The notes beneath the pieces are model-generated. The model was not told the DNA's origin and ran no database searches. It worked only from the letters and a program-made list of their open reading frames with translations. The translations under genes were made by a program, and so were the position numbers. A stretch of 62,075 bases of DNA, the filler included. It is 15 parts of 15 records of this genome, joined end to end, with 100 filler letters (N's around TTAATTAATTAA, not from the genome) between each part and the next. Parts side by side here need not be neighbours in the genome. Positions count along the whole stretch, not along the records: positions 7,955 to 11,028 come from SRR7504441_10992; 14 more parts are not named here. The stretch is one strand, 5' to 3'. Below, piece after piece: positions 7,855 to 19,000 of the stretch. Position 1 is the first letter of the stretch. Each line of letters begins with the position of its first letter.

Positions 7855-8160
7855 NNNNNNNNNNNNNNNNNNNNNNNNNNNNNNNNNNNNNNNNNNNNTT
7901 AATTAATTAANNNNNNNNNNNNNNNNNNNNNNNNNNNNNNNNNNNNNNNNNNNNGGAGGTGGACCGACAGTGTACTACATGGCGTTAATTAGTACTATAG
8001 CTAATTGTACATAATTGACGATAACTAGCATGATAACTAGTCTACTACAGTGCCAGTGGACTGACTGAGTAGACTCTTACTGTACTTGTATACGTACTTG
8101 TACAAGTACTGAAGTTGAGGCAGTTGAGGTGTGGTTGGCCAGAGGGGCGTGCGTGCAGCG

Positions 8161-9623
8161 ATGCCGGCGGCTCGCGAGAAAGGCTACAAGGGCTGGATCC
8201 GAGTGAAGGACAAGTTCGGCGGCCAAACCTGGCAGCGAGCCGACCGCACCCACGGCGACCTCGACCACCACCCCTCCCGCGGCGGCTGGCGGCCGACCGA
8301 CGGCCCGAGCTCCGACCGCGACAACGTCTGGGTCTCATACGACGACGACGACGGCGATGTCCGTTGGGGTAACGGACACCAACGGCTCCGGCGGTCGACC
8401 AGCCCCCGGCGCCCGCCGAGGCGCCGCTCGCCGAGCCCGAGCCGCCGGTCAAAACAGGAGCACGGCGCTCGGCGGCCGGCGAGTCCGGTGCGGCAACGGC
8501 CGGGTTACGAGTTCTCGGCGGCGCAACGGAATGTGCAGGAGGCGGCGGCCGAGCTGGACGAGGTTGAGTTTTATTTATCCGAAGCCAACGCCTCCGGGGA
8601 TGGCGCGGGGGTGGCGGCGCTGGAGGGGATGGTGGGGGCGGCGCGCGAGCAGCTGGCGGAGGCGAAGGTGGCGATGATGGATTTGGAGGCAAGGGAGGCG
8701 GCCGCGGCTGTGCAGGCGGTGGAGGCTCGGGCGGCGGCGGGCGACTTCGTGGCTGGTTCGGAGGTCGAGGCTGCGAGGCAGAAGCATCGAAACGCCGTCG
8801 TGATGCTGGGAAACGCGCTCGGGCATGAGATGGCGATGGCGCCGTCCCCGCCGCCGGCGGCTGGGCTGGTGCACCACCACCACCCGCCGGCTGGCGTGGA
8901 GGTGGAGCATCTGCGGGCGGCGCTGGCTGCTTCGGAAGCCGACTCGATTATGGCCAAGTCAGCACTGCAGATGGCGGCGACCGACTCGGCGAGGGGTGCT
9001 CCAACGGATGTTAACGGAATTTAACGGCATTGTGGTAGGGGCGGAGCACGCGATGCAGCTGGAGGCCGAGCTCGGTCAGGTGGCGATTATCATTTAACGC
9101 TATTTTTAACGCTGTATTTAATGTTATTGATGTTGGATGGCAGGCCGTGAACACGGAGCGCGCTATGAGCGAGGAGCTGAGGTGTGTGGATTAGTGTCCG
9201 TTAACGCGGCGAGCCGTTGGGGCAGGTTTCTGCGGCAACGAGCGTGCGAGAGCTCGGCGGCTTTGATTTCGCTCACTGAGGAGTCTGAGGGCTTGCACCG
9301 GCAGGCGATCGAGGCGTCTATATATAGTACTTTACAGTACAGTGTGTAGTATATATACACACACTATAGTACTGTAGTACTGTAGTACTAGTGTACTGGA
9401 GGGGTCTGAAGGCTTGCACCGGCAGGCGATCGAGGCGCTGCACGACCTTGGCGTCCCCCCCGCCCAAGGCCCCCCGATGCTGATGCCACTCAGCCCGCCG
9501 CCGCCGCCAGGGTTGCCACCAGTCAGCCTGAGCGGCCCCCGAGGCCCAGACCCGGCAGAGATGGCGCGGAGGGAGGCCATAAATCAGCTGCAGCTCTTGT
9601 GTACGCACTTGGAAGGATATTAG
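8161..9623 (+). CDS. Hypothetical RS-rich/coiled-coil protein; 4 introns
   Basis: Introns at 8996-9038, 9080-9143, 9182-9225 and 9305-9425 (GC-AG) give a continuous frame ending LCTHLEGY*. Confidence 0.65.
9275..9437 (+). repeat. About 42-bp exon duplication flanking a 78-bp AT-rich quasi-palindromic insert
   Basis: actgaggagtctgagggcttgcaccggcaggcgatcgaggcg (9275-9316) versus actggaggggtctgaaggcttgcaccggcaggcgatcgaggcg (9395-9437). Confidence 0.92.
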
Positions 9624-9916
9624 CCCGTGGTAGTCTAGTAGAGCTATTATAGAGCTGTTACTGCAATACTGATCTATGCGCGGATGACTGAATACGGGAG
9701 CTTACTGTACTTACTAAAGACAGACTTAGTACTATGTACGTGTAAGCAACGGTTATGGCTTGAGCTTCTAAGCATGTATATTTTAATAACAACCACCAGT
9801 ATGCGATCACGCGCACCTGGGTCTTCATCCGCGCCCTTGTAAGCACTATTGTAAGTACATAGCGTGTTCTACAAGTCATGTACGACACCGGCGCCAGCGA
9901 AGCCGTCATGCGCTGC

Positions 9917-11028
9917 TCAGATCAGCATGTCGCCCTTCTCGTGAAAGTGCAAATCAAACAGCCGATGCACCTGACAAAAAGTCCGTTAATCTCCGTCGAA
10001 ACCCCGCCGCACACCACGGCGTGCAGTGCGCTGTCGAAGCCGTCCAAGAACTCCTGCTTGGTCACCACTTGGTCGCCGTCCGCGTCCAACTTTAGCATGA
10101 AAAAGTCGGTTAGCTGGCTCTTCACTTCGGTCTGCACAAAGTTGTTGTTCACCACCTGAAAACACCAAGAAAGTCCGTTAAAGTCTGTTGGTTTCTGTTA
10201 AAATAACCGCGCTCCGGAGCACTTGCTCGCGCTCGGCGGGTGAGAACGGCCAGTCGGCGATGATGTGCTGAAGCCCGTTGGCAAGAAACCGGTTCATGAA
10301 CCTGCGACCACCGGCATAATAATCAAATACTATATCTAATAATAATAATAATCAATTGATATTAATATAATCACCGGAGCGCCTCGTCGGAGCCCATAAC
10401 GCCGTCCTTGTTGGCGTCGTATTTCTTCCAAAGACCTTCCTTGAGCGCCGCACTCTCCTGTACAACCCCGCGCGCTCAGCTAATAACAATAACTACTACT
10501 ATTTACTATCATTAATCAATTAAATAAACCCACCTTGATCCATGCAGTGGCCGTGCCCATGTACTCCCCCGCCGGTTTCTTCGTCGCCGTGGCCTTCTCC
10601 GGCGCCGGCTCCTCCAGCGCCGCCGCCACCGACGCCATCGCCGCCGCCACCGCCGCCGGCCCGTCCGACGGGGCAGACGCCGCCGCCGGCTTGGGCTCCT
10701 TCAGGTGCTCTCGCTCAGGATCATTCATCGCCTGAAAAACGTCCGTTAACGTCCGTTAAAATCCGTTAAACAGCCCACCTTGAGTTTAGTCAGCCGCTTC
10801 TCTCTCTCAGCGTCGGAGGCTTCAATGTCCTCCTTCAGCTTGGCCACGCGGGCGGCCTCGGCCTCCGCGTCCTTGTGCGCCTTCCACTCCGCATCCTCCT
10901 TCGCCGCTCGCGCCGCCAGCTCGGCCGCCGCCGCCTCCGCCTGCCGCTTCTTGAGCTGAGCGGCCTCGAGCGCGGCTTTCTCGGCATCGGCCGCCTTTTG
11001 CTGCTTGGAGGCCGCGTGCAGCTCGGCC
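9917..11028 (-). CDS. EF-hand protein with an Ala/Glu/Lys coiled-coil N-terminal part (5'-truncated); 5 introns
   Basis: EF loops DANKDGVMGSDE and DADGDQVVTKQE. GT-AG introns at 10732-10778, 10458-10533, 10302-10374, 10156-10207 and 9971-10014 restore the frame; ends GDMLI*. Confidence 0.8.
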
Positions 11029-11128: not shown

Positions 11129-14100
11129 GATACGGATCAAGATCAGGAATCTGATGAAAAAGAAGGCTGAGCGCAAGCAGAAGGCGACACCGGCTCCAAG
11201 CATAGCGCCTACTGCCATCCCGACTGTGGTACCAACAGCCCAGCCCTCCTCAACCCCGACTTCTGCAGCCCCAACAGTTGACCAGGCAAGCATTGAAAGA
11301 AAGAAGAAAAAGGACGTTGACGAGGCTGCAGCGAAGAAAGAGGCAACTCTTGAAACAAAAACAAAGGAGGGTGAGCAAAAGGAGGCTAAACAAAAAGCCC
11401 AAGAGCGCAAGCCGAAGGAGAAAGTCGAGAAGAATAGGCGTAAACAAGCTGTAGAGACGCAAAATAAAGAGGCAGATGAGAAGAAGCTTGAGCGGCTCGA
11501 GAGCAAGAAGAAACGCACTAAGGAGATCAATGAGAAAGCCAAGCAAAAGGTTGATGAGAAGAAGCACAAGATGGAAGAGAAGAAGGAAAAAATCACAAAG
11601 GTGATGAAGCGGAAGGCGATGCGCCTGCAGAAGGAGGCAAAAGAAAAGGCAGACGAACGAACCCCAAAGAAGGAGGGCGAAGAGAAAGCTGAACGAAAGA
11701 AGAAACGGGCCATTGAGGAGGCTGCAGCCAAGAAGCAGGCAGCGTTGGAGAAGCAGAGCAAGGAGGACGAGCAGAAAGAGACTGCACAAGCTGATCAGGA
11801 AAGCCGCGCGAAGGAAACAACAAAGAAAACACAGGAAAAGCAGGCTCAAGAGCGAAATGCAAAAGATCAAGTCGAAATCCAGGGGCAAAACTTGAAGCTC
11901 CAAGAAGAGAAATTGAAGAGCTCACAGCCTGTGACACCAGTCACCAAGAACGAGTATGACAAGGCACTCCAACTTCAGCGTGAAATGGCAGAGAAGCAGC
12001 AAGCAGCGGAGGCAAAGCAAAAGAAGCGCGAGGACCTCGACGCGAAGCGCATGTTGTCTTTAGAGAAGAATGGGAAAGCTCAGATGCAAGCAAAGGAGAA
12101 GAAAGACAAGCTAGCAGTGATCAGAATCAAAATGATGAAGATAGAGAATGACAGGAAAGAGCGCAAGGAGAAATGGTCCGAGCGCAGTCCTAAGAAGGAA
12201 AGCACTCGTAAGGCACTGGAGAAAAGGCTCACTGCAATGCAGAAGAGTTCTGCGGAGGAGCAGGCTGCCTTGATGAAGCTGTCTAAAGAGGCAAAGAAGG
12301 AGGAGGAGCAAGCTGTGCAGAGGCAGCGACAGGCTGCTGCTGTGGTACGTGAGGCGGAGGGTCGTGAAGCTGCAAGCAAAGAAGAGGCTAAGAACCAAGC
12401 TGTGGAAGGCCGGCGAAAGACTCAGCGACGGCAAGCACACGAAAAGAAGGTAAAAGATACAGTGCAAGAAGCGCGGGAACAAGCTAGGGAGAAGCAGAAG
12501 AAATACGAGTGGATTCAGTTCAAGCTCAGGCATCAGCAGGTCGAGGACGATGCAAAGGTCGAGCAAGGCAAAATTCGAAATGACAAGCTGCGAGAACAAG
12601 CCAAGGCTATGGAGAATTCGCTCAAATTTTCACAAAACAAAGTCTCCAAGTGGGAGTCAACAGCGTCAAAATATTCTCAAAGAGAAGCAGCTTATAAGCA
12701 AAAGATTGCTATATCGACCGCCGCTTCACAGAAGCAGGAGGTTGAGACAAAACTTGCCGAAAATACAGCTCACGAGACCCGAGCTAAGGCTCAGGCCGGG
12801 AGCTCCATGACCAAAATGCTAGTAGCAGCCCAGGCACGAGAGGCTATGCGGTTGCGGCAGAAGGAAGGAGCACTCAAACAGAAGCTGGCGTCCTTGTCAA
12901 GGAAACAGTACCGTGAGAAAGGTGCCAAGAAAGAAGCAAAGACAGAAGAGCAATGCGGCATAAGCAAAGGACGGGTGACTGCTATTCTCAGTGGAAAGAT
13001 TGTGTCAGGAGATAGCGACAGCAAATTCATCAAGGAGCTGAAGGTCGGCTATGAAGTGACAATTGCTGGGCAGCAATTCATTGTGACCGCTATCGAGTCT
13101 GAACAGACGTTCCGAATCAACTGTAAATTTGATGGCGATATCAGTGAACCTCAGATCATGAGGTATTGTAAGCGTCAGGCAGTCCTACCAAAGGTGGAGA
13201 TCCCAGAAGGCTTTGTCCAGATGGGTGACGCTGTTACCCGCACAATGACTTCTCGTCATGGCTGCACTGCAAGATTTTCAGTAGTGACTGCAAGCTGCGA
13301 TCAGGCTCCAATGAAGGGCGATTACTTTTGTGGGTGCAAAAAGGGCGGCTTGATCGCGCTCACTGCGAGCAGTGTCCGCACTGCCCATATTCCTGAATGC
13401 ACTTCTTGGTACTCTCACGCACTAGAGGTGCAAGAAGCTGAGAAAGTCAAAGCACTGCAGGGCCTGGCTCAGTTCTCAGCTGGCTGGGCTGAAACTTGTC
13501 TGGTGGGAAATTCCACTGAAAAGGAATTCAACAAAGAGCTTCCAGAACCCAACCGATGGTTACATGGAATGCGAAACCTGACCAATGGCTACATGTATGA
13601 CTGGGCACAGAAGCCGGTTCAATTGCCATATAAACACGAGGACAATGGCAAATTGATATGCCAATCGAATTTCGTTGTTGGAGTGGCTGTTTGCAATGCA
13701 AAGAAGCTTATGGAGAATAACACAGCATTGATTGGTGGTTTGAGCAGCGTGTTCCAGGGCTGTAAGGGCAAGCTGATGACATCAGAGCTCTATGGACAGA
13801 TTGTGTACATGCAGAATCAGCAGCCTCAGACCCAGCGGCTGTGTCTCCGTAAACACACTGAGTGGGCAAACGAGGCAGCCAAAGCCCAGAAACGGGTCTC
13901 AGAGACCTTGCAGACTGTGCTTGGCAAAATGACAAACTTGACTGAACCTGTATGTGAAGTGCATACAGTCAGTCAGAAGGATGCGAGGCTACTGGCTCAT
14001 GAAGTCAAGGAGCAAAGCGACAAGACTCAGGCTACTCTGAAGCATTACAGGGACCGCTCAGAAGCCCTTTCACTTGAGCTGGAAAGTCTGAGGAAAAAGC

Positions 14101-15701
14101 GATCGGTTGGTGAAAAGAAAATCAACCAGGAAATTCAAAAACAAAAGGCAAACGAGGCTCAGGAAAAGGACAAGCTAGAATCGACTGATCGATTTGAAAA
14201 GCCAGGTGAGGCTCATGCAATGCTACAAGCACAGGAGAAAGAGGCAAAGCAGTACCAAGTCCAGCTCACAGCAGTGCAAGATAAAGCAATGCGTGCAAAT
14301 GAGAATAAAATGCGCGAGCGGTTAGAGCACGTACAGAAGCTGCTGGTCAAGACAAAGGACATAGAAGCAGAAAAGAGAACAGTCTCTGAGAAGGAGAAGA
14401 AGAAGATCGAAAAGACAAAGATCACCGAGATTGAGGCTCAGGTCGACAAGATGGAAGATGAGGAGTGTACTGAGCAAAAAGTCGAGAAGGGTGTCTCAAA
14501 GGACATCAAGGCGCAGAAACAACGATTGAAGGGTACGATAAGAGCTGCGCAGCAGATGGAAGACGAGAAGGAGCAACAACATTCACAGTTCCAAGCGACG
14601 CTGACAAAGGAAAAGACTGATGCTGAAAAGGAGGCAAGAACCGAGAAGCGCAAATTTGAAGAGAAGCAGCACGAGCTGAGCCAGGCGAAGATTGCAATTC
14701 GTAAGGACTCGGAGAAGCAAAAGAGGGACAGTAAAGTGGAAATGGATAAAGCAGTGTCGCAAGCTAGGACCGAAGGAGCGCAAGAAGCCCAGCATCAGTC
14801 TGAGCAGCTGCTGGTAAAGCAGGAGAGAAACACCAAGAAGATGGAGAAGGAGATGATGGCTTCTCAACAAGTGTCCATCCAGCAGGCTGAGCTTAAGATG
14901 CAGCGCGAGATGCTGAACGAGAAGAAGAAGCTGGAGGCACTCCTAGTCAAGAAGGAGCAGGGCAATTCCAGTGCTGAGACGGATGCTAAGATTGCCCAGC
15001 TGCAGAAATTAGTGACTTCAACAGAGGAGCAGAATACTGTCGAGGCCGAGCTGAGCCGCACTCTAAAGCAGAAGGAAGCAGGGGTGAAGCAAGTAGAATT
15101 AAAGGCTCTTGCGATCAACAAACAGACTCTACAGTCTCTTGAACGTGATGAGCGCAAGAAGAAGAGCCGGCACCCAATCGAGCGCGCCGAACGGGCTGAG
15201 CAAGGGTACAGAGCCGCCGAGAATAAGGAGAATAGTAACAAGGCGAATCTCCCGGAGGTGAAGGTGAAGACGCAGGAGGTAACAGCCAAGCGTGGTGAGC
15301 TGTCCCGGCGAGCCAAGGGTCGTGTGGAAAGCATCAGCCAGGAGGAGGAGGAGTCCAAAGTCAAGCTGGAGCAGGCGGCTCGGACCCAGGCTCTTACCGA
15401 CGAGCAGCTCCAAAAGGAAAAAGCCAAGAATAGATTGCTGCGACACCAGCAGCAGAGGACAGCTGAGTTGAAGCTGGACAGCGAGCAAGGTGTTGCCAAG
15501 GTGATCCAACAGTTGCATGCCCTGCGCGGACATCTGAACTCGAGGAACACGACAGCAGAGGCGCTCGCACGTGGCGAAGCGATCTTGGAACACAATCGGA
15601 AGCATGTCACTTTGAATCACACAGGAAGACACCCGGATGACCGACTTGAGATCCGCCACGACAACGATAATAATTATAATAATAACCAAGATAACATTTA
15701 A
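11129..15701 (+). CDS. Giant intronless K/E/Q-rich coiled-coil protein with a PT-rich linker and central Cys-rich domain (5'-truncated)
   Basis: Uninterrupted ORF of more than 1515 aa with a strong purine bias on the coding strand. Confidence 0.85.
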
Positions 15702-16025
15702 GTCTGTCACAATGTCATGATTGTGGCAGACGCTCTAAAACACGTGTTAATTAAATAAAGCATGGTGAACTATCATACACGCTGTATTTTGTCCTATTAG
15801 AGTACCTACTATNNNNNNNNNNNNNNNNNNNNNNNNNNNNNNNNNNNNNNNNNNNNTTAATTAATTAANNNNNNNNNNNNNNNNNNNNNNNNNNNNNNNN
15901 NNNNNNNNNNNNCTCTGAAGCTGGCACCTTATGAAATTTAAGGTTTCTTGGACATAGCTACCGTAATTTATCTGACGCCCGTGGTCCCGCACGATCGTGG
16001 GCGCGGGGACAACCAGCAGATCTAG

Positions 16026-19000
16026 ATGAAGAAGAAGGTGGACTCGCGGGTGCGGGTGCTGCTGGAGAACGGGACCAAGACCGGGCACCGGACCATGTTC
16101 CTGATGGTAGGCGACCACGGCAAGGACCAGGTCGTGAACCTCCACTACATCCTGTCCAAAGCCAGCGTACGCACCCGCCCGTCGGTGCTTTGGTGTTACA
16201 AGAACGACCTCGGATTCAGCAGTCACCGAAAGAAGCGGGTTAAGCAAATTAAAAAGCTCCAGCAGCGCGGGATGCTGGACCCCGAGAAGGATGACCCGTT
16301 CGAGCTGTTTGTGGCTTCGACCAAGATCAGGTATTGCTATTACAAGGACACCCAGAAGGTGCTCGGCAACACGTACGGGATGCTGGTACTGCAGGACTTT
16401 GAGGCGCTCACCCCCAATATCCTGGCCCGGACCATCGAGACAGTGCAGGGCGGCGGGGCCATCATCTTTCTGCTAAAGACGATGGGTTCGCTCAAGCAGC
16501 TGTACACCATGGCCATGGACGTGCACAGCCGATTCCGCACCGAGGCGCATCAAGACGTTGTGGCCCGGTTCAATGAGCGATTTATCCTGTCGCTAGCCTC
16601 ATGCTCCAACTGCCTCGCTCTCGATGACGAGCTCAACATTTTGCCAATCACTGACCAGATCCAGCGGATCAGGCCAGTCCATGGACTGGTCGCCACCCCA
16701 GATGGGTCGGTCCACTTGACCGCCCGCCAGCAGGAGCTAATCGAGCTCAAGCAAACGCTCAAGGATACCCAGCCGATCGGATGCCTCGTGGAGACCACGA
16801 GGACGGTGGACCAAGCCCGCGCCCTGCTCACCTTCACGGAGGCAATATCGGAGAAGACCCTCCGGTCCACAGTGGCGCTCACCGCCGCGCGCGGACGTGG
16901 CAAATCGGCTGCGCTCGGAATCGCAATCTCATCAGCGGTGGCGTTCGGCTACTCCAACATTTTCGTGACCTCTCCGTCTCCCGAGAATCTCAACACTCTG
17001 TTCGAGTTTGTGCTTAACGGACTGGAAGCACTCCAGTATAAGCGGCACATGGACTACGAAGCGATAGAGTCCACCAACCCGGACTTCAACCGGGCAATTG
17101 TGAGAGTGAATATATTCCGTGACCACAGGCAAACAATCCAGTATATCATGCCACAGGACCACGCCAAGCTGGCTCAGGTGACCGCTCTGCAGCTGTCCGT
17201 TGACCGCCGGCAGGCCGAGCTCGTGGTGATTGATGAGGCTGCAGCCATCCCACTCCCGCTAGTCAAATGCCTTCTTGGGCCTTACCTTGTCTTCCTTTCA
17301 AGCACAATCAACGGCTACGAGGGCACAGGACGCTCGCTCTCGCTCAAACTGATACAGTCGCTCCGGCTGCAGTCGGGCGCCGGGTCCAACGCCCGCACCC
17401 TCCGCGAAGTGTCACTGGATGAGCCTATCAGGTTGTGTTGGCTGGCCATTGCTCAGCCAGGGAGACAGGTACGCTCAGGATGACCCAGTTGAAGCTTGGC
17501 TTAACCACCTGTTGTGTTTGGACGCTTCAGCCACCTCGATCACTGGTGGCTGCCCGTGTCTGCTCTTTACGAGTGTGTGCTCAGCCTCACATTGCCCACC
17601 TCCCTCCCAGTGTGAGCTGTATCACGTCAACAGGGACACACTCTTCTCCTATCACAAGGCAGCCACTGCGTGCTCGACAGACTAACTGGGCGGTGCCAGG
17701 CCTCTGATCTGTTTCTAGCCCGGATCATGGCGCTGTATGTGGCCTCGCACTATCGGAACACGCCAAATGACTTGCAGGTCCCTCTCGCCTCCCGGCTGCG
17801 TCAAACATTGGGCAGATGATGTCGGACGCACCAGCGCATCAGCTCTTCACGCTTCTGGGGCCTGTAGAGCCCGGCTCGAGCTCGCTCCCCGACATTCTCT
17901 GCGTGATGCAGGTGGCAGTGCGCATCAAACCGGCTTGACAGTCATTGGTGAAGGTGTGCTTTGAGGGAGAAATCTCAAAGGAGAGTGTCAGAAAGCAATT
18001 AGCCCGTGGCCAGCGGGCCGCGGGCGATTTAATCCCGTGGACATTAGCACAGCAGTACCTAGATAACGAATTTGCACATCTATCTGGAGTGCGGATTGTT
18101 AGGATTGCCACTCACCCAGACATGACACGAATGGGGTGCTTCGAGCGCTCAAAGCTGGTCTGACTAAAGCTTGCTGCCTGCAGCTACGGTTCGCGGGCGA
18201 TTGAGCTGCTCACTCAATACTTCGAGGGTCAGTTTGGTAACCTTGCCTCTCCAGGCCCAAATCCATCAGCTGCAAAAGATAACTCTGAGGAGAACCAAGG
18301 GCTGAGGCACGAGAAGCTCCGACCCCGGGCTAAAGTGCAGCAGCTACTCACTAGGTTCGTCCGCTGGGGTGATAGCTGGCGCCTCATGGCTGTGCAGGCT
18401 GTCGGAGAGGCCAGCAGAGAGGCTGCACTGGATGGGCGTTTCATACGGCGTGACAGAGCAGCTTTACGGGTTCTGGCAGCGCGCAGGCTACACTCCTCTC
18501 TATGTGCGACAGACAAGCAACGAGCTGACTGGTGAGCACACATGCATCATGCTCCGAGCCATCCAGACCGACCAGGTACTGGCACACGCCAGCTGTTGGA
18601 GCAACCATCTGCAGGTTGAGTCTGGTTGGCTTGGTCGTCTATTCAGTGACTTCCGCAAGCGCTGGATGGTGCTGCTTGGGTGATCTGAATAGCAGCTCGT
18701 ATTACATGCTTGGCGCAGGTTTGAGTTCCGAGACTTCCCTGTGGCCCTGGCACTGGAGATGCTCAAGAATTCTGGCACTAGCCCCTATCAACGGCGGGTG
18801 ACCACTTGTTGTAGTTGGACCACGCGATGAACCTGTTGGGGACGAATTGTCGGATTCAGAGCTCAACTTTTGGTTCTCGCCGTATGACCTCAAACGCCTC
18901 GAGTCATATGCCAACAATCTAGTGGACTACCACATGATCATTGATCTCGTTCCAGCACTTGCGCGGATTTACTTTGAGCACAAGGTGCCATCAGTGGTAC

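Follow-up and report, generated by a model that had tools for sequence, protein, structure and literature searches.

The yeast U2-type branch site reads UACUAAC, and U12-type introns carry the branch site TCCTTAAC together with the donor box RTATCCTT. The genome paper of Emiliania huxleyi is said to mention intron repeats of 10 to 11 nucleotides (nt). In the excerpts of the literature that are cited here and below, the human branch site has the consensus yUnAy (Gao et al. 2008, PMC2367711), the introns known as introners are ~210 bp long in the pelagophytes Aureococcus and Pelagomonas and occur also in Micromonas (PMC9481584), and the introners of Amoebophrya have 8- to 20-nt inverted repeats and 3- to 5-nt direct repeats (PMC7789003). 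Strand-biased tandem repeats have been described in the introns of Daphnia pulex and other arthropods (Mayer et al. 2010, PMC3152781), repeat-rich introns in E. huxleyi (bioRxiv 10.1101/283549), and a 7-bp repeat in intron 5 of dog LHX3 (PMC3223203), according to the same kind of excerpts. Here, we describe very short introns in two neighboring genes on one contig (contig 3) of a marine eukaryotic metagenome bin, several of which consist almost wholly of head-to-tail 10-nt units that resemble branch sites.

The window (the whole stretch of DNA that was analyzed) is 62,075 nt long and joins 15 contigs of 3 to 5 kb each from this bin, separated by spacers of the form N44-TTAATTAATTAA-N44. Contig 3 occupies positions 7955-11028 (3.07 kb) and carries two convergent genes, one of them a minus-strand EF-hand gene. 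The genes and introns of contig 3 have the following coordinates in the window.

8161..9623, plus strand: gene with exons 8161-8995, 9039-9079, 9144-9181, and 9226 onward; stop codon at 9621-9623
8996-9038, plus strand: intron Ia, 43 nt, GT-AG; units CCAACGGATG, TTAACGGAAT, and TTAACGGCAT
9080-9143, plus strand: intron Ib, 64 nt, GT-AG; two ATTTAACGCTAT-like units that repeat every 12 nt
9182-9225, plus strand: intron Ic, 44 nt, GT-AG; one copy of the palindromic CCGTTAACGC
9917..11028, minus strand: EF-hand gene with exons 11028-10779, 10731-10534, 10457-10375, 10301-10208, 10155-10015, and 9970-9917; 5' end truncated by the contig end; stop codon at 9919-9917
10732-10778, minus strand: intron I1, 47 nt, GT-AG; three perfect TTAACGGA with a 10-nt period, followed by a T run and CAG
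10458-10533, minus strand: intron I2, 76 nt, GT-AG, GC content of 0.36, without the unit
10302-10374, minus strand: intron I3, 73 nt, GT-AG, GC content of 0.25, without the unit
10156-10207, minus strand: intron I4, 52 nt, GT-AG; units TTAACAGAAA, CCAACAGACT, and TTAACGGACT
9971-10014, minus strand: intron I5, 44 nt, GT-AG; units TCGACGGAGA and TTAACGGACT

Removing the five introns of the minus-strand gene leaves a single open frame of 272 codons with a stop at its end, and removing Ia, Ib, and Ic from the plus-strand gene keeps one open frame up to an AT-rich insert near 9315. The start of the plus-strand gene agrees with that of P0121, a 93% identical protein of the diverged relative described below; no Pfam family matched this gene, and exon 5 of the minus-strand gene matched EF-hand_1 with an E value of 0.0018, under the Pfam cutoff. 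All eight introns run from GT to AG (donors GTGCTC, GTGGCG, GTGTGT, GTGGGC, GTGGGT, GTGATT, GTTATT, and GTGTGC), none of the eight lengths listed above is a multiple of 3, and I1 contains TAA stops in all three frames. Judged by these sequence features, contig 3 has genuine spliceosomal introns of the U2 type (GT-AG) that are very short. A first-pass annotation of this DNA had given coordinates for six of them, all of which proved to be GT...AG segments carrying the units quoted for them, but it had missed two introns of the minus-strand gene (10302-10374 and 10458-10533).

Two other assignments were considered for these segments and rejected. A coding repeat, rather than an intron, is ruled out by the in-frame stops and the frameshifts. 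U12-type introns are resembled by the contig 3 introns in the TTAAC core near the acceptor, but RTATCCTT is absent from all eight donors, and the bases before TTAAC vary (GT, TT, AT, or CG) instead of being TCC.

The motif TTAACGGA occurs 8 times in the window versus 0.48 times expected, a count that none of 100 shuffles reached, and seven of the eight copies are on contig 3. TTAAC was found 15 times on contig 3 (3.07 kb) versus 19 times in the remaining 57.6 kb, with none of those 19 in tandem. Tandem Repeats Finder (TRF) detected the following arrays within the introns of contig 3 and, on the other 14 contigs, no short arrays of this kind.

9003-9027: 10 nt x 2.5, in Ia
9092-9121: 12 nt x 2.5, in Ib
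10170-10189: 10 nt x 2, in I4
10738-10769: 10 nt x 3.2, in I1

When self-matches were summed over the eight introns, lag 10 was the most prominent of lags 3 to 15, with 141 matches in 315 comparisons versus a shuffle mean of 91.2 (matched by 0 of 5,000 shuffles). The repeats are, then, tandem in the sense that at least two copies stand head to tail above chance. The annotation had nevertheless gone too far in describing the introns at large as tandem 10-nt units: this holds for Ia (16/27 at lag 10), I1 (22/31), and I4 (21/36), each unmatched in 2,000 shuffles, while I5 is marginal (80 of 2,000 shuffles), Ib has a period of 12 nt, and Ic has one copy.

The unit is also strongly oriented and largely confined to introns. 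In the eight introns, the ratio of sense to antisense occurrences is 11/3 for TTAAC, 10/2 for TTAACG, and 7/1 for TTAACGG, and the three antisense TTAAC are reverse readings of GTTAAC palindromes, each beginning one base before a sense TTAAC. Sense TTAAC is present in six of the eight introns (the probability of at least six of eight, calculated from intron base composition, is 2.3e-7), and the exons of contig 3 (2,003 nt) contain no TTAAC on either strand; its other noncoding DNA (630 nt) contains one. The unit had been said to lie always in transcript sense and only in introns. The first statement has one exception, a perfect TTAACGGA that is antisense in Ic, where the overlapping palindromic GTTAACGC had been counted as sense; the second is true of contig 3 but not of the window, in which one TTAACGGA lies at 17014 within a NAT10 exon. 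Overall, the earlier observation is partly confirmed, being real but overstated.

Beyond contig 3, the only other TTAAC-type intron candidate is a possible 37-nt GT-AG segment in a long open frame on contig 2 (4255-4291), which has a single TTAACGG ~20 nt before its AG.

The earlier suggestion that the TTAAC core is branch-point-like agrees with both its sequence, which fits yUnAy, and its position. The last TTAAC has its adenosine 14 nt (Ia), 34 nt (Ib), 21 nt (Ic), 14 nt (I1), 22 nt (I4), or 15 nt (I5) from the 3' end of the intron, and 14 to 34 nt is the usual range of branch points. A yUnAy match 10 to 40 nt before the acceptor is present in seven of the eight introns, with TTAAC in six of them; I2 has none by this pattern, and Ib has additional TTAAT and TTGAT sites closer to the acceptor than its units. 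The degenerate units CCAACGGA (Ia), CCAACAGA (I4), and TCGACGGA (I5) all lie upstream of the last copy, whose TTAAC core is intact. This order suggests constraint on the last copy only, albeit without being significant by itself (three arrays).

The reading that we favor, with confidence slightly above even, is that a branch-site module has been multiplied by slippage. The recurrent internal element is a module on the sense strand in which GG(A/C) mostly follows TTAAC. This module fits yUnAy and would have been copied head to tail with a 10-nt period in three to four introns, for which replication slippage would be the simplest route. The body of such an intron would then hold little beyond two or three branch-site copies between donor and acceptor. 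We infer that splicing uses the copy closest to the acceptor as its branch point and that the upstream copies are spare or decaying duplicates, which may also serve as filler that holds the intron above the minimum length for the spliceosome. Because 10 equals 1 modulo 3 and the unit contains TAA, three copies would put stops into all three frames of the unspliced message. The sense orientation would follow if only the RNA strand with the branch signal, which is also T-rich, were tolerated. If the units are working branch sites, the copying of one signal would let minimal introns maintain their length and acquire redundancy, and slippage of the branch module would be a simple route of intron growth in marine protists.

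Introns of the same build are present elsewhere. When metagenome contigs were scanned for the pattern TTAACGG NNN repeated three times, 101 loci were obtained, most of them ordinary minisatellites in unrelated contexts. Four of these 101 loci (L011, L017, L022, and L029) have arrays of 9- to 11-nt TTAAC-type units that are bounded by GT and AG and lie between pieces of open reading frames (ORFs); L007, L034, and L059 (assembly of L011) were left out of this count. Relative to the gene strand, which was judged from ORFs for all of the loci except L029, sense and antisense occurrences number 60 and 5 for TTAAC and 51 and 0 for TTAACG. The L029 homologue P0122 (964 amino acids) aligns with this locus exon to exon and skips both large arrays (residues 89-198, in which one intron is bridged by a gap, 198-218, 218-252, and 249-281). 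P0122 was the sole match of the L029 exon search, a protein atlas search with P0122 gave no usable match, and neither P0122 nor P0121 matched a family in Pfam. L022 has array introns alongside AT-rich introns, as does contig 3.

The same build thus recurs in longer introns of other marine eukaryotic contigs and is not unique to contig 3. Given these parallels, contig 3 probably comes from a lineage that commonly builds its introns from TTAAC units, and this lineage possibly differs from the main genome of the bin. We only tentatively extend this to an intron class of several uncultured marine eukaryotes, made of a donor, n branch sites, and an acceptor and lengthened by tandem amplification of its own branch module; such branch-module-amplified introns, if they do form a class, would represent a self-extending route of intron growth.

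Several of the loci recovered by the scan have features of their own. In L011 (1-1564), five of the six introns of a eukaryotic gene are filled with TTTTAACGG units (TTAAC, 24 sense and 2 antisense), and the sixth holds ~15 copies of GTGATCCATA; a Vitellogenin_N hint for this gene (E value of 0.062) was below the cutoff and was not used. L081 and L085 (627 nt each) look bacterial and contain three TTTAACGGAT plus the reverse complement as an intergenic inverted pair ~150 to 190 nt apart. Each of these repeats adjoins GGGGTTCCGCCC-like words, with a hairpin between, and they are an unrelated use of the same 10-mer.

A relative of contig 3 was found in run X1, where two contigs that are ~5% diverged from it span all eight introns. 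Prokaryote-style read-through ORFs of this relative (P0121 and P0123) retain the intron units. P0121 ends in ...GACDLTDVNGF*, versus ...GAP--TDVNGI* here, such that the second and third Ia units are kept and the first has a 6-nt indel, and P0123 keeps the I5-derived ...STEINGLFV.... Over the 47 codons of exon 5, P0123 shows no difference by BLASTP and 98% identity by HMMER; three of its four amino acid differences are in intron-derived codons. This comparison indicates conservation of the introns and their units, along with a faster rate of evolution than in the exon. A database search with the plus-strand gene exon matched only one relative.

The first-pass annotation had also raised the possibility that contig 3 belongs to a distinct compartment or a co-binned genome. 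For comparison, we used 13 introns on contigs 5 and 14, obtained by alignment to NAT10 homologues and by inspecting the XPD gene. They differ from those of contig 3 as follows.

Intron length: 36-58 nt on contigs 5 and 14, 43-76 nt on contig 3
Intron GC content: 0.62 on contigs 5 and 14, 0.40 on contig 3
Exon GC content: 0.58 on contigs 5 and 14, 0.70 on contig 3
Intron length divisible by three: 6 of 13 on contigs 5 and 14, 0 of 8 on contig 3
TTAAC present: 0 of 13 on contigs 5 and 14, 6 of 8 on contig 3 (Fisher P = 0.0005)

The branch-like sites of the 13 introns are TTGAC, CTAAC, CTGAC, or CTGAT. In tetranucleotide composition, contig 3 has the second-lowest mean correlation with the rest of the window (r = 0.56, most others being at 0.68 to 0.79), and its GC content at third codon positions is 0.84 versus 0.63 to 0.78 elsewhere. 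Its relative synonymous codon usage (RSCU) correlates with that of the other contigs at 0.62 to 0.83, and the range among the others is 0.42 to 0.90.

The contrast in intron style and the tetranucleotide outlier make a co-binned genome or a special compartment plausible but unproven, and we put at about one in two the chance that contig 3 was co-binned from another marine eukaryote in which such introns are the norm. This origin, which is compatible with the other readings, would account for the differences in GC contrast, multiples of three, and TTAAC content and for the low tetranucleotide correlation, and the mixture of array and AT-rich introns on L022 is in keeping with it. On the other hand, the codon usage of contig 3 falls inside the range that the other contigs span, the introns of both groups are similarly tiny, and 3 kb is little for tests of composition. 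In a rival to the slippage reading, four of the unit-bearing introns (Ia, I1, I4, and I5), perhaps along with Ib, would form a family descended from one short intron that spread within and between the two genes by introner-like insertion or gene conversion, and the shared 8-mer would be inherited rather than selected. A common-origin family had indeed been proposed by the annotation, and these four introns are alike across both genes: they are mutually closer than shuffles (0 to 2 of 300), including in cross-gene pairs, and follow one alignment scheme of GTG, two or three units, a T run, and YAG. The AT-rich introns I2 and I3 resemble each other as a second family would. We nonetheless regard common descent as rather improbable, since the introns have neither target-site duplications nor terminal inverted repeats (junction repeats reach at most 4 to 5 nt, and the inverted match of 2 to 6 nt is the unit itself), the copies measure only 43 to 52 nt and are far from identical, and their tandem structure inflates pairwise similarity. 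The spread of such a family is moreover not countable from the one contig available, and described introners are far longer (~210 bp in pelagophytes, from the excerpt of PMC9481584). Most improbable in our view is that the arrays are neutral T-rich intronic microsatellites, i.e., slippage products with no role in splicing, which would be confined to introns because a TAA-bearing 10-mer does not survive in exons and oriented because the sense strands of introns are T-rich. Strand-biased intronic tandem repeats with T-rich sense motifs are documented in animals (PMC3152781, as excerpted), only 630 nt of other noncoding DNA on contig 3 are available for testing restriction, and most of the 101 loci are ordinary minisatellites. 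Neutrality would not, however, predict that Ic and I5 also have a single nonrepeated TTAAC at branch distance, that the last copy is always 14 to 34 nt from the acceptor, or that the arrays have been kept in a strain diverged by ~5% with no 10-nt change among the indels listed.

Of the three interpretations that the annotation had offered, which as a whole are partly supported, the multiplication of branch points is the best supported, yet several observations weigh against our slippage reading of it. A perfect TTAACGGA (9197-9204) is antisense in Ic, overlapping a sense TTAACGC, and individually significant 10-nt arrays are limited to three of the eight introns (Ia, I1, and I4). I2 and I3, in the same minus-strand gene as I1, are AT-rich and do not contain the unit. 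The 12 indels listed of the 26 between the two strains include no change by a 10-nt unit, and ongoing slippage is not demonstrated by them. P0122 may be a gene model rather than a transcript, and the public runs with contig 3 comprise only one marine metagenome (with part of contig 3) and no RNA run. TTAAC is absent from all 13 introns of contigs 5 and 14, which, if all contigs are from one genome, means that branch sites in this organism do not generally use the module. Finally, the GGA after TTAAC is common to introns of the two genes and is not explained by a bare branch-site role; its conservation points either to common descent, for which it counts, or to an extended recognized signal. 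The branch-binding region of U2 small nuclear RNA consists of GUAGUA plus the following bases, and GGA-NN-TTAAC might form a longer duplex with this stretch.

For practical purposes, intron style is a sharp marker for separating contigs of different eukaryotes in metagenome bins, and contig 3 may be a stray of this kind. Its introns would escape gene finders that had been trained on the remainder of the bin.

I2 and I3 are alike beyond their composition (0 of 300 shuffles) and form a second intron type on contig 3. The plus-strand gene, in turn, contains at 9276-9434 an AT-rich insert of ~80 nt (TAGTACT-type words) between direct duplicates of ~37 to 39 nt of coding sequence, which have ...GGCTTGCACCGGCAGGCGATCGAGGCG twice and three differences upstream. 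A GT-AG intron at 9316-9391 would retain both copies in the protein, and GC-AG pairs exactly 121 nt apart would excise one copy. The contigs of the relative terminate or begin at 9352 and 9482, within or near this region. The insert may be a young intron born by duplication or an assembly problem.

On the other contigs, the NAT10 gene of contig 5 (17178-19357) has eleven introns of 36 to 48 nt that are as GC-rich as its exons, six of them multiples of three; the intron at 17178-17213 is readable through with no stop, and that at 17659-17699 appears to be GC-AG. Its product matches EukProt and MERC proteins at 81 to 82% and then oomycetes at ~70%, which is uninformative for contig 3. Contig 4 (11129-15812) is the strongest tetranucleotide outlier (mean r of 0.33), with a GC content of 0.50 and a high AT skew, and may also be foreign to the bin. 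Other eukaryotic genes in the window encode an XPD-like helicase, an ABC transporter, a sulfatase, and WD40 and RING proteins, and an Rfam search found zero families anywhere in the window.

Compared with known U2-type branch sites, the TTAAC of contig 3 likewise fits yUnAy and lies 14 to 34 nt before the acceptor of GT-AG introns, but here the predicted branch site is within a tandem 8- to 10-nt unit that forms most of the intron. With the introners of Micromonas, Aureococcus and Pelagomonas, and Amoebophrya, the contig 3 introns share the occurrence of look-alike intron groups within one marine protist genome, although they are only 43 to 52 nt long, lack such repeats, and are internally tandem; what resembles near-identical introner copies here is four similar introns in two adjacent genes, with none of such arrays on the other 14 contigs. 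The repeats of D. pulex and E. huxleyi are similar in being tandem, in clustering in introns, and in having T-rich motifs in the sense orientation, but the excerpted reports describe neither units bearing branch sites nor whole minimal introns made of them. Dog LHX3 intron 5 offers a further parallel, since there, too, a very short intron owes its size to how many copies of a short tandem unit it holds, and this number matters for splicing; it differs in being a single mammalian disease locus, and no branch-site content is reported in the excerpt. A literature search, mainly of titles and abstracts, yielded no description of tandem units that bear branch sites and build introns, which is not proof of absence from print. 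The unit-built introns of contig 3 probably do not represent a fundamentally new route of intron building and growth. Rather, the proposed branch-module introns are a variation on known branch sites and intronic tandem repeats, and their novelty is moderate.

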